A stretch of 39,476 nucleotides of DNA, taken from NCBI GenBank assembly GCA_046734675.1, contig JBKPRU010000332.1, forward strand, positions 1-39,476, written 5' to 3'. The position numbers were made by a program, and so were the translations under genes. Below the pieces are notes generated by a model, which saw only the letters and a program-made list of their open reading frames with translations, did no database searches and was not told the origin of the DNA. Shown here piece by piece: positions 2,476 through 36,870 of this stretch; within the stretch, counting starts at the first letter, position 1; the number at the start of each line of letters is the position of its first letter. The stretch comes from Acidobacteriota bacterium. GTDB lineage: Bacteria; Acidobacteriota; Vicinamibacteria; Vicinamibacterales; 2-12-FULL-66-21.

Positions 2476-2504
2476 TCCGCCCGCCCGTCCGCCACCGCCC
2501 CGCC

Positions 2505-2540
2505 GGCAACCGACAACCGGCAACCGACCACCGACAACCG
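2505..2540. repeat. Tandem CAACCGACAAC-type oligomer array (module R2)
   Basis: The sequence is GGCAACCGACAACCGGCAACCGACCACCGACAACCG. The same motif recurs at 14972-14992, 15051-15060, 34791-34839 (opposite orientation) and 37028-37040. Confidence 0.8.
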
Positions 2541-10477: not shown

Positions 10478-11766
10478 GGCTCGAGAAAGACAGCGCGGTA
10501 CCGGGACCACGTGAGATCGGCCATCGGCAGCACGCCGTGCCAGTACTGCAGCATCTGAAACACAGATAACGCGCAGAGCGCGGTGACGACGAGGGCGACG
10601 GCGAGTCGCGCGCGCGGAACGGACGCGATGCGTGCGTAGAAGGAGGCCAGCCCGAGCGCGAACAGCGGATACACGTCCACGAACGCGCGATGGCCGTAGC
10701 TGGCGCCGAACTGCCAGTCCCACCAGCTGGCGATCAGGTAGGTGTCGACGACCAGGATCGCCATAATCGCGGGTAGCCAGCGGTGCAGCGATTGCGGAAG
10801 CCACCCGAAGCCGACGACCGCGAGCAGGAGCACGGGCGCGTAGAAGAACAATCCCTTCTGCACGCTCACCAGCACACCCGCGAGGTGCGGCGCCGCGAAC
10901 GTGAACCCGAGATTGCCGTACGAGCTGACGATCCAGTTCCCGGTCGCGGCACGATAGAGCAGCAGCTGCGGAAGAACGATCGCAAATGCCACGATCCCGA
11001 TGGTGGCGGTGAGACGCAGGCGATCGCGCCGATCGACGATCGCGAGCGTGGCGACGATCGCCACGACGACGATCGCGTTGGTGTGGCGGACGAGCACGAC
11101 CAGGCCGCTGACGATTCCGAGCGGGATCGCGCTCCGTGCCGGGCGCCACTCGTCCGCGAGATCGAGCAGGATGGCAACGAGCGCGAACGAGAACGCGTGG
11201 CTCCACGTGCTGTCGAACGTGGCGTAATGAAAGAGGCTGGTGCCGGCAAGGAGCGTCGCGAGCGTCGCCAGCGTGACCGCGGGCGAAACGTGACGCCGCA
11301 GCAGACGGTCGAGGCTCCACAGGCCGACGATCACGTAGCACAGGCCGGCTACGCCCGCGGCGTGTTGGTAGTAGCGGCTGAAGCCGTCCGGCGTGAGATT
11401 GGTCCAGCGCGTCAGCGCGTGCGCGACGGCAAAGAATGGCGCGATCAGGACGGCTTCACCGATCGGGTGCGCGTTCACCCACCGGTTCGTGCCCGGCCAG
11501 CGGATGATGGCCGTCCACGACGGAAACGATCCGCCGCAGCAATCGCTGGCGACCGACTGCAGGGTCGGGTCGTGATAGAGCAGCCACGACGGCAGGTAGA
11601 CGTAATACGAAAACGCGTCGGAGCGAATGGGCGTGCCGGCGCGTCCGTGCGTGTAGGCGTAGACGTAGCCGGCCAGGCAGAGGGCCGCCGCAAGCGCGAT
11701 CGACCACCGCGACGAAGCCGAAGCATCACGGATGGACACGGATGGATACGGACACAAGCCGCGCAT
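10468..11766 (-). CDS. Polytopic membrane protein, GT-C/ArnT(PMT_2)-like putative glycosyltransferase
   Basis: There are many TM helices, and the first periplasmic loop IRSDAFSYYVYLPSWLL resembles the Dxx..Y loop of GT-C enzymes. ATG at 11766; GTG at 11739 is an alternative. The first ~13 codons are read from an R3 repeat module. Confidence 0.5.
   Translation of the reverse strand: MRGLCPYPSVSIRDASASSRWSIALAAALCLAGYVYAYTHGRAGTPIRSDAFSYYVYLPSWLLYHDPTLQSVASDCCGGSFPSWTAIIRWPGTNRWVNAHPIGEAVLIAPFFAVAHALTRWTNLTPDGFSRYYQHAAGVAGLCYVIVGLWSLDRLLRRHVSPAVTLATLATLLAGTSLFHYATFDSTWSHAFSFALVAILLDLADEWRPARSAIPLGIVSGLVVLVRHTNAIVVVAIVATLAIVDRRDRLRLTATIGIVAFAIVLPQLLLYRAATGNWIVSSYGNLGFTFAAPHLAGVLVSVQKGLFFYAPVLLLAVVGFGWLPQSLHRWLPAIMAILVVDTYLIASWWDWQFGASYGHRAFVDVYPLFALGLASFYARIASVPRARLAVALVVTALCALSVFQMLQYWHGVLPMADLTWSRYRAVFLEPWW
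11727..11755. repeat. R3 module (CACGGATGGA / TCCATCCGTG tandem oligomers)
   Basis: The sequence is CACGGATGGACACGGATGGATACGGACAC. The same motif family occurs at 23906-23940, 34891-34925 and, degenerate, at 36897-36947. Confidence 0.75.
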
Positions 11767-14954: not shown

Positions 14955-14971
14955 GTTTCCTCCGCGTTGCG

Positions 14972-14992
14972 GGTTGTCGGGTGCCGGTTGCC
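14972..14992. repeat. R2 module fragment (GGTTGTCGG..GGTTGCC)
   Basis: GGTTGTCGGGTGCCGGTTGCC, with a further ACCGACAACC at 15051-15060 in the same divergent spacer. Confidence 0.6.
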
Positions 14993-15143
14993 GTCCGCTA
15001 CCACCACACTGTTGAACGGTTCGGGGCACGCGTACTTCCGGCCACCGAGCACCGACAACCCACAAGCGATTGCCAGCAAACGGCGTGCTCGATTGCCGCA
15101 GCTCTGCTGCGGGCGAGGGCTCGCGATACAATCGTCGCGCCGA

Positions 15144-16393: not shown

Positions 16394-16482
16394 ATCACGA
16401 AGATCACGAAGGTCACGAAGGTCTTATTGGTTAAACCTTTTAATCTTCTTCGTGGTCTTTGTATCTTCGTGAGCTTCGTGAG
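16394..16482. repeat. R5 module: three direct RTCACGAAG 9-mers, an AT-rich centre, then four inverted CTTYGTNNN 9-mers
   Basis: The direct 9-mers are at 16394-16402, 16403-16411 and 16412-16420. The inverted copies are CTTCGTGGT (16448-16456), CTTTGTAT (16457-16464), and CTTCGTGAG at 16465-16473 and 16474-16482. The array is followed by GGCCGTGACTGTGAA, and the same tail follows the R5 copy at 24173-24222. Confidence 0.85.
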
Positions 16483-23905: not shown

Positions 23906-23940
23906 GATCCACCACGGATGGACACGGATGCACACGGATG
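23906..23940. repeat. R3 module
   Basis: The reverse complement of 23906-23939 is identical over 34 of 34 nt to 34891-34924 (ATCCGTGTGCATCCGTGTCCATCCGTGGTGGATC). Confidence 0.9.
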
Positions 23941-24100
23941 CTGTCCTGCGGCAATCCAGACGCTGAGAAGGATGGCTGCGGGTGAGCGTGCCGCCGACCG
24001 CCGGCCTTTCAGCCGGCGCCGTGAGGGCGCGCGGATCGTGCGCCCTCTCGTTCGCGCGAAGCGCGGGTCGGTGACACGATCGCGCAGCCCTCCGTTGGTG

Positions 24101-33520: not shown

Positions 33521-33577
33521 GCCCTGAGCCAATGAACTCTAAGCCCCTTGAACCGTAAGCCCTGAGCCGTGAGCCCT
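33521..33577. repeat. R6 module (TGAGCCC / TAAGCCC units) filling the hisG-hisD spacer
   Basis: The sequence is GCCCTGAGCCAATGAACTCTAAGCCCCTTGAACCGTAAGCCCTGAGCCGTGAGCCCT. The same units occur at 22526-22552. Confidence 0.75.
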
Positions 33578-34473: not shown

Positions 34474-34785
34474 CTACTCCAGCGCGCGGAAGAAGCAGGT
34501 CCGCTCTCCGGTGTGGCAGACGTTGCCCTCCCCGAGCCGCGTCACCTTCACGAGGATCGTGTCGTCGTCGCAGTCGACCAGCATCTCGTCGACCTGCAGC
34601 CGGTTGCCGGACGTCTCCCCCTTCGTCCAGAGCGCGTTGCGCGTGCGGCTGAAGAACGTGACGTAGCCGGTCGCCCGCGTCCGATCGAGCGCCTCCTGGT
34701 TCATGAAGCCGACCATGAGCACTTCGTTCGAAGTCACGTCCTGCACGACGGCCGGAATCAGTCCGCCTAGCTTTGAGAAATCCAT
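34474..34785 (-). CDS. hisI: Phosphoribosyl-AMP cyclohydrolase (monofunctional HisI, no HisE domain)
   Basis: ATG at 34785 ([16 protein letters not shown]). [21 protein letters not shown] and [10 protein letters not shown]. The 20 upstream codons of the track ORF are read from an R2 repeat and are rejected. Confidence 0.9.
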
Positions 34786-34790
34786 AACGT

Positions 34791-34991
34791 CGGTTGTCGT
34801 TGTCGGTTGTTGGTTGTCGGTTGCAGGTTGTCGGTTGCCATTCACCGGCGGGTCTGAAGACCCGCCCTACGTGGAACTACCCTCCGACCAATCCGTGTGC
34901 ATCCGTGTCCATCCGTGGTGGATCCTTCTCTTTTTCTGTGTTCTTCTGTGGCGGTGTTCTTCTGTATTTTTCTGTGGCGCTCTTCTGTGGC
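34791..34991. repeat. Mosaic of modules R2 - R1 - R3 - R4 between the terminator and hisI
   Basis: R2 GTTGTCGGTTG array at 34791-34839. R1 GGCGGGTCTGAAGACCCGCCCTAC at 34847-34870. R3 at 34891-34925. R4 TTCTGTGGC-type units at 34926-34991. Confidence 0.85.
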
Positions 34992-35028
34992 AAAAAAAAA
35001 GCCCCGCGCGGCGCTGGCCGGCGGGGCT
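34992..35028 (-). terminator. Rho-independent terminator
   Basis: The minus strand reads AGCCCCGCCGGC-CAGC-GCCG(C)GCGGGGCT, giving 12 bp with one bulge, followed by nine U residues. Confidence 0.85.
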
Positions 35029-35054
35029 GTCGAAAGTCGCTCTGGGACGTTAGC

Positions 35055-35126
35055 TCAGTGGCGCAGATCGACCGGCCCGCCGGAACGGGAATGGTGGTGC
35101 CGGTGGTAGCGATGCGCCAGGAACAT
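35055..35126 (-). CDS. Candidate his operon leader peptide (23 codons, His-rich)
   Basis: ATG TTC CTG GCG CAT CGC TAC CAC CGG CAC CAC CAT TCC CGT TCC GGC GGG CCG GTC GAT CTG CGC CAC TGA translates to MFLAHRYHRHHHSRSGGPVDLRH*. It has 6 His, 5 of them within 8 codons. I see no Shine-Dalgarno sequence. It starts 22 nt after the ggt stop. Confidence 0.35.
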   Translation of the reverse strand: MFLAHRYHRHHHSRSGGPVDLRH

Positions 35127-35148
35127 CGTGCGAGCGAGCGTAGCCGCT

Positions 35149-36870
<1,722 letters not shown>

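Follow-up and report, generated by a model that had tools for sequence, protein, structure and literature searches.

Transcription of the hisIGDCBHAF operon in a member of the order Vicinamibacterales (Acidobacteriota) is very probably controlled by a histidine-specific, ribosome-mediated leader-peptide attenuator, as judged from the sequence and from simulations of its RNA. The element lies on the minus strand of the window, by which is meant the whole analysed stretch of 39,476 nucleotides (contig JBKPRU010000332.1 of assembly GCA_046734675.1), from a genome with 66% G+C. Three features of this class of attenuator are found together there: an open reading frame (ORF) rich in His codons upstream of the operon, an intrinsic terminator before hisI, and a promoter upstream of the leader. 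The promoter, the His-codon ORF, the terminator, their spacing and their potential to pair are conserved among relatives. A sequence-only reading of the same DNA had proposed an attenuator at this site, and every coordinate that it gave is exact.

Histidine-codon leader and terminator ahead of hisI

The hisL-like leader ORF, MFLAHRYHRHHHSRSGGPVDLRH*, comprises 23 codons and a stop codon (35055..35126; minus strand, as for every element of the attenuator described below). Its ATG at 35126 lies 22 nt past the stop codon of ggt, and its own stop codon occupies 35057-35055. Six of the 23 codons specify His, five of them within eight codons, as the sequence-only reading had described. The candidate regulatory run spans codons 5-12 (CAT CGC TAC CAC CGG CAC CAC CAT; 35091..35114). 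Among all six frames of the window, this leader is the only site with at least five His codons in eight. A six-frame search of 652 kb yielded 57 such clusters, and 53 of these fall within 420 nt before hisI on the sense strand.

A terminator hairpin starts 26 nt past the leader stop codon (35001..35028). By folding, it has 12 pairs, one bulge and a free energy of about -23 kcal/mol; its 5' arm (about 35028-35016) contains segment 3, CCCGCCGG (35025-35018), and its 3' arm occupies 35012-35001. The U-tract of nine residues follows directly (T9, 34992..35000). The claim that this is the strongest intrinsic terminator of the window is borne out by a ranking of hairpin-plus-T-run elements, in which it comes first.

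The conservation of this arrangement was examined in relatives found by a HisI scan, with one genome taken per species, which gave 80 loci with 76-87% identity. Nearly all of them are labelled Vicinamibacterales, Vicinamibacteria or Acidobacteriota, and hisG directly follows hisI in 79 of the 80. A HisI protein search returned only relatives of at least 80% identity, so it cannot show whether the element is present or absent outside the Vicinamibacterales. Immediately before hisI, 77 of the 80 species genomes have an ORF of 18-31 codons that contains a His run and is followed by a GC-rich hairpin and a U-tract. The sequence-only reading had staked its proposal on such conservation, which thus held in 77 relatives, and one further relative has the unit before hisG. 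A hairpin comparable to that of the window is present in 74 parsed loci, at 22-42 nt from the leader stop codon, with U-tracts that are mostly T5-T10 and in a few cases T4. Compensatory changes occur at two positions of the terminator stem among 25 type-A leaders (CG in 15 and UA in 9 at one, UA in 9 and CG in 9 at the other). The closest relatives are metagenomic sequences whose HisI is 95-96% identical to that of the window. They carry the same promoter, the same terminator hairpin and the same or a nearly identical leader peptide; in two of them, a single His-to-Tyr change is found in the peptide.

The leader peptides fall into at least five unrelated types, exemplified by MFRAQHHHRHHHHSCSGGPVELHAY, MMLRHGHHTAQPTVHRGGAADLHVR, MTLRQRHHHTHHPATAAGQWTCV, MVRVLAHAHVHHHHGHIGRPAGLRA and MFVRHHHVHHHAGQAAGGVRV. 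The His run is what these types have in common, and the rest of the peptides diverges widely. A covariance model was derived from 25 leaders that share the type found in the window (A1, R1) and was searched against 81 sources. With the exception of four, each source has a sense-strand match immediately before hisI, with bit scores of 18-135 and E <= 0.0025 in all but two; the 25 seeds and the window match it by construction, and about 50 matches are independent. Nothing comparable was found elsewhere on the sense strand of these sources, where the other matches are weak and mostly lie on the reverse strand of the same terminators. Two of the 80 loci, L073 and L078, have neither a His leader nor a match to the covariance model near hisI. 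In L009, there is no leader before hisI, and a complete unit of promoter, His-rich ORF and terminator lies 13 nt before hisG. This unit, between hisI and hisG (L009:4335-4560), reads TTGACG-18-TAGGGT, 9 nt, ORF MHAYVHHAHGEHPRHGRGRHPGPRVARPAGRWICV*, and a terminator with U7. It suggests that the attenuator can relocate within the operon, and because of its position before hisG, the module appears to move as a unit. Three of the 80 loci bear odd labels despite 77-82% HisI identity to Vicinamibacterales (L078, Propionibacteriaceae; L021 and L072, Bifidobacteriaceae), and these are probably binning or label errors.

The same survey bears on a simpler explanation, in which the hairpin and its nine U residues are the terminator of ggt and the His ORF is a chance frame in GC-rich, CCACC-rich sequence. 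The sequence-only reading had allowed that the terminator could simply belong to ggt. The end of this gene is 22 nt from the leader ATG, no other terminator belongs to it, and GC-rich genomes contain many spurious ORFs. However, only 20 of the 80 loci have ggt as their upstream neighbour, and in about half of the loci, the upstream gene is divergent according to gene calls based on G+C at third codon positions (GC3). The ORF and the terminator stay with hisI in the 60 loci that lack a ggt neighbour, and a conserved promoter stands between the upstream gene and the ORF. A chance frame is also at odds with the concentration of 53 of the 57 His clusters of 652 kb in the his spacer and with the presence of exactly one in the window. 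The explanation by ggt and chance is therefore extremely improbable. The window terminator may well stop ggt transcripts too, but such a role is not the conserved one.

The coding part of the leader bears signs of translation and of a constraint on the RNA. In the type-A alignment, gaps inside it are multiples of three. CAC and CAT swap freely in the leaders, where CAT accounts for 41% of the His codons (181/445) as against 15% (15/100) in the hisI genes next to them. The sensor is thus enriched in the rarer codon, which may serve either sensitivity or RNA pairing. In segment 2, the part of the leader proposed to pair with the terminator arm, the codons GGC GGG CCG GTC are conserved at 96-100% in their third positions, which indicates that selection acts on the RNA.

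Public gene callers misread this region. In one public assembly, automatic calling places a 68-residue ORF over the leader and the terminator (L081:1230-1436), and the window has a matching spurious ORF of 91 codons (34877-35152, minus strand). The real 23-codon leader falls under the length limits of gene callers.

Promoter, predicted leaderless start and spacer

The consensus among relatives identifies a -35 hexamer, TTGACT, inside the last codons of ggt (35161..35166) and a -10 hexamer, TACGCT, which follows after 18 nt and lies 10 nt before the leader ATG (35137..35142). A -10 element of the form TAnnnT stands upstream of the leader start in 67 loci (TAGGCT in 25, TAGGGT in 13, TACGCT in 7). 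About 50 of these 67 have TTGACA or TTGACT 17-18 nt further upstream, and most of the remainder show TTGCGC-like hexamers with a TGA-extended -10. The pattern TTGAC-N17/18-TAnnnT has a single match in the window, both strands having been scanned. A generic scan for promoters and terminators missed both elements of the unit, as TACGCT agrees with TATAAT at only three of six positions and the terminator is bulged; its sole nearby match, TTGCCA-16-AAAAAT (34993->34966), is weak and is not conserved in the relatives. A scan of the window for more units of promoter, short ORF and terminator found only the one of the his operon. As a by-product, the Vicinamibacterales loci give a promoter consensus of TTGACA, a spacer of 17-18 nt and a G/C-rich -10 (TAGGCT, TAGGGT or TACGCT).

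The distance from the end of the -10 element to the leader ATG is about 7-11 nt in the relatives, with modes at 10, 9 and 7. Transcription from sigma-70 promoters starts about 7 nt after the -10 element. Together, these values predict a 5' untranslated region of 0-4 nt, so that the leader mRNA is probably translated in leaderless form, as far as promoter spacing can tell. The sequence-only reading had correctly counted the lack of a Shine-Dalgarno sequence among its caveats. The conserved promoter 7-11 nt before the ATG accounts for this absence because leaderless initiation is predicted and leaves no room for such a sequence.

In the relatives, the U-tract usually lies 5-70 nt from the ATG of hisI (median about 40 nt, and 30 nt or less in over a third), so close in many of them that there is no room for a separate promoter. 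This matters for the possibility that the unit of about 135 nt from promoter to terminator is an independent small gene, specifying a His-rich micropeptide, for example a metal-binding one, or a trans-acting small RNA, with read-through into hisI only incidental. A promoter and a terminator of its own would suit such a gene, as would the C-terminal part of the type-A peptide, SCSGGPVELH, which looks conserved; moreover, other bacteria have attenuator RNAs that act in trans after their release, for example rnTrpL (PMC6614838). However, apart from the His run, the peptide differs from type to type, and where stretches of it are conserved, the third codon positions are kept as well, which points to a constraint on the RNA and not on the protein. 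Furthermore, in the relatives the unit always stays next to the his operon, usually at 5-70 nt, often with no room for another promoter, and in L009 it moved with the body of the operon. An independent small gene is thus unlikely, and a secondary role in trans, which is compatible with attenuation, is possible.

The window departs from its relatives in the spacer between the attenuator and hisI, which consists of tandem repeats recognised by Tandem Repeats Finder (34786..34991, minus strand). No other spacer in the set is as long as its 206 nt. Since hisI is preceded by only about 30 nt (..CACAGAAGAACACAG ATG) in the closest relatives, the repeat modules are a recent insertion in the genome of the window, outside the conserved switch. 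The remarks of the sequence-only reading that the repeats are rich in CCACC text and separate the terminator from hisI were factually correct, although this separation is specific to the window. The modules comprise a CACAGAAGAA-type repeat with a period of 26, CACGGAT[GC]NA, and AACCGAC/CCGACAA in five to seven copies. The same modules recur at other intergenic sites of the window (2503-2540, 11727-11752, 14966-14993, 16395-16481, 23913-23941 and 33549-33577), and related CACGGA modules occupy the same his site in L019 and L081; possibly they represent a mobile or slippage-prone family of intergenic repeats. A perfect 8-bp GC hairpin, GGCGGGTC-TTCA-GACCCGCC (34848-34868, minus strand), lies in the insertion about 65 nt before the hisI ATG; it has no U-tract and does not occur in the closest relatives.

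The genes on either side are assigned by their Pfam domains. ggt, with its TGA at 35151-35149 on the minus strand, matches G_glu_transpept (E 5e-167). hisI, which encodes phosphoribosyl-AMP cyclohydrolase (34474..34785, ATG at 34785, minus strand), matches PRA-CH (E 3e-31), and hisG, D, C, B, H, A and F come after it on the same strand. hisI is thus the first of eight his genes, as the sequence-only reading had stated.

RNA pairings and the simulated switch

Three segments of the leader transcript have complementary parts. Segment 1, defined by minimum-energy pairs as the 5' strand of the leader hairpin, overlaps the His codons (35093..35119) and includes the core ACCGGC (35104-35099) and TGGCGCA (35119-35113). 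Segment 2 (35059..35083) can pair either with segment 1, through GCCGGT (35076-35071) and TGCGCCA (35065-35059), or with the 5' arm of the terminator, through the antiterminator strand CCGGCGGG (35083-35076), which is the exact complement of segment 3, CCCGCCGG. Each of these six short sequences is present exactly once.

In the proposed mechanism, transcription would start at the sigma-70-type promoter (TTGACT 35166-35161, 18-nt spacer, TACGCT 35142-35137), the 5' end of the transcript would coincide with the AUG at 35126 or lie no more than a few bases from it, and a ribosome would load without a Shine-Dalgarno sequence. When His-tRNA is ample, the ribosome would pass the His codons, reach the stop codon at 35057-35055 and leave. 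Segment 1 (35119-35093) would then pair with segment 2 (35083-35059), the hairpin at 35028-35001 with its nine U residues would form, and transcription would terminate at about 34992. When charged tRNA-His is scarce, the ribosome would stall on codons 5-12 and cover segment 1. Under these conditions, CCGGCGGG would pair with CCCGCCGG once that arm has been made, and the terminator would be held off long enough for the polymerase to read into hisI.

Folding of the free RNA gives a minimum energy of -73.3 kcal/mol (z = -3.46), which none of 200 shuffled sequences equalled. This fold holds the terminator together with the enclosing pairing of TGGCGCA with TGCGCCA and the His-codon pairing of ACCGGC with GCCGGT, both of which the sequence-only reading had drawn by hand. 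In the consensus of 25 type-A leaders, ACCGG.C.CC.CC pairs with GG.GGG.CCGGT, and one pair covaries (CG 18, UG 4, UA 3). The antiterminator pairing of CCGGCGGG with CCCGCCGG shows standard pairs in 97% of the cells of these 25 sequences, as against 30-60% in controls with the partner displaced by 1-3 columns. The other leader types have different sequences in the His-codon hairpin and retain a GGCGGG-like stretch complementary to the 5' arm of the terminator.

The effect of a ribosome was simulated by placing a 28-nt footprint at every codon of 75 leaders, with the nascent RNA extending up to the terminator loop. The quantity compared was the ensemble free-energy gain from pairing the 5' arm of the terminator with upstream RNA, and leaders with shuffled upstream sequence served as the control. 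With no ribosome, this gain was -6.3 kcal/mol in real leaders, -5.8 in shuffled ones and -4.6 in the window. With the A site on the His codons, the gain rose to -10.2 kcal/mol in real leaders and -12.9 in the window but was -5.9 in the shuffled controls. A ribosome at the stop codon gave -6.1, -5.8 and -5.8 kcal/mol for real leaders, shuffled leaders and the window, respectively. The difference between real and shuffled leaders is highly significant (Mann-Whitney p = 7e-25), and the difference found for the window is reached by 0.2% of shuffles. The best ribosome position falls in the His run, within one codon on either side, in 60 of the 75 leaders as against 34% expected. The effect is seen in all five peptide types, weakly in type B. 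The simulation thus agrees with the proposal of the sequence-only reading that a ribosome on the His codons frees the antiterminator segment, an effect that appears neither at the stop codon nor in ribosome-free RNA.

Several observations weigh against an attenuator of this kind. The relatives share ancestry, and the p-values therefore overstate the independence of the sequences. Type-B leaders have only three clustered His codons along with their weak simulated switch. The antiterminator shows almost no true covariation, with double changes in only two cells, because segment 2 hardly varies; its duplex is only modestly better than those of random genomic windows (median p = 0.08, p = 0.15 for the window), GC-rich pairings being cheap at 66% G+C. 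The covariation looked for in the proposed pairings was found in the terminator and in the His-codon hairpin but hardly at all in the antiterminator. A narrow test of the duplex between segments 1 and 2 against random genomic windows was not significant (median p = 0.66), and the leader without its terminator is barely more structured than shuffles (mean z = -0.86, -1.7 for the window). In minimum-energy folds of the window, the nascent RNA already contains the antiterminator when no ribosome is present, whereas the full-length RNA invariably adopts the terminator. A ribosome mask over the His codons, the folding check that the sequence-only reading had suggested, does not flip such folds by itself, and only the ensemble scan with shuffled controls is informative. 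Because minimum-energy folds do not switch, the switch would have to be kinetic, as in classical attenuators. Finally, some transcription of hisI independent of the attenuator may possibly arise from the promoter-like match in the 206-nt insertion of the window.

A further alternative is a cis-regulatory leader of another type, in which the His codons are not the sensor. It could be a T-box-like (tRNA-binding) element, a riboswitch for a metabolite, an antiterminator that depends on a protein, or a hairpin acting mainly by hiding the ribosome-binding site of hisI. T-boxes or the HisR repressor are frequent regulators of his operons in Firmicutes and Actinobacteria (PMC9413887). Moreover, some relatives have a mere 5-15 nt from the U-tract to the ATG, and there a Shine-Dalgarno-like GAGG could coincide in part with the 3' arm GGCGAGGC. 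However, no T-box or other Rfam family was found at the gathering score in the window or in eight representative loci, and at about 100 nt, the leader is too short for a T-box. Besides the terminator, the only feature common to all leader types is a His run in frame with a start codon whose distance to the promoter is fixed. Hiding of the ribosome-binding site cannot apply in the window, where hisI is 206 nt away. Such a leader is accordingly very unlikely. In several relatives, including L029, L047, L057 and L066, the U-tract ends 5-6 nt before the hisI ATG. Where spacers are so short, though not in the window, the 3' arm GGCGAGGC lies at the position that a Shine-Dalgarno sequence of hisI would take, and the hairpin may also mask translation initiation.

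The favoured attenuator also makes a prediction for transcripts that read through from ggt. In these, the leader AUG would be internal and without a Shine-Dalgarno sequence, so that the leader would go untranslated, the transcript would be terminated, and the his operon would be insulated from ggt. The leaderless 5' end may thus act as a licence, by which only transcripts from the attenuator's own promoter load a ribosome and escape termination while read-through from upstream is terminated; the chances for and against this idea appear evenly balanced. If it is true, one module of 175 nt would combine promoter, insulator and histidine sensor, and it would provide the first evidence of leaderless initiation used for regulation in Acidobacteriota.

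Relation to known attenuators and meaning for the Vicinamibacterales

At gathering score, neither the window nor the eight representative loci match any Rfam family, including the His_leader family (RF00514) and the T-box (RF00230). A scan of 34700-35250 at E <= 10 gave only chance matches driven by the terminator hairpin, and neither of these two families was among them. The element nevertheless resembles enterobacterial hisL (RF00514) in its logic. Each has a short ORF with a cluster of His codons immediately before the his operon, and behind that ORF an intrinsic terminator. In hisL, and as proposed here, pairings 1:2, 2:3 and 3:4 compete, so that a ribosome that stalls can keep transcription from terminating. 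However, the two belong to different phyla and have no detectable homology in sequence or structure. The first gene of the operon is hisG in enterobacteria and hisI here, and seven His residues in a row stand there against the interrupted HRYHRHHH here. Moreover, the Vicinamibacterales leader has no Shine-Dalgarno sequence, starts about 7-11 nt after the -10 element and is predicted to be leaderless.

Outside the enterobacteria, His-leader attenuators have been predicted in the Bacillus cereus group, Peptostreptococcaceae and Erysipelotrichales (PMC9413887), and His leaders of hisS/hisZ in bacilli (PMC2965389). Like the present element, those of Firmicutes are lineage-specific, evolved independently, combine a leader peptide of three to five or more His codons with terminator and antiterminator hairpins, the antiterminator being a candidate in the present element, and were recognised by comparative genomics. 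Their sequences are unrelated to it, they belong to another phylum, and they are not reported as leaderless; the Vicinamibacterales element, by comparison, is conserved across the entire order with at least five peptide types.

Leaderless leader peptides are known in Actinobacteria. In Streptomyces lividans, trpL1, ilvL and leuL2 are leaderless and are followed by a hairpin and a U-stretch (PMC8079986), and in mycobacteria, leaderless poly-Cys short ORFs act by unmasking a ribosome-binding site (bioRxiv 10.1101/834739). As predicted for the present element, a sensory ORF lies there at the 5' end of the transcript without a Shine-Dalgarno sequence, and stalling on the cognate codons controls the operon. 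However, these leaders sense Trp, Leu, Ile/Val or Cys and not His, none of them is from Acidobacteriota, and the mycobacterial Cys elements work by ribosome-binding-site unmasking instead of intrinsic termination. In this comparison, the leaderless status of the Vicinamibacterales leader is predicted from promoter spacing alone.

The sequence-only reading was not aware of hisL-type logic in Acidobacteria, and no description of it for Acidobacteriota was found in the literature searched. A survey of 2010 remarked that a function was assigned to almost none of the attenuators predicted in that phylum (PMC2965389). A histidine attenuator is probably new to Acidobacteriota, as a regulator of an already known kind whose leader is probably leaderless. 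It would represent an independent origin of His attenuation beside those of Proteobacteria and Firmicutes, and it offers a testable case for leaderless translation in Acidobacteriota. The element defines a concrete, order-wide family of cis-regulatory RNA that is absent from Rfam, and it accounts for a region that public gene callers have mistaken for a protein of 68 residues. The Vicinamibacterales have received little study, and the working consensus of their promoters that came with the element (TTGACA-N17/18-TAGGCT or TAGGGT) could be a starting point for predicting promoters throughout their genomes. Acidobacteriota are among the most abundant phyla of soil, and their regulation is almost uncharted.

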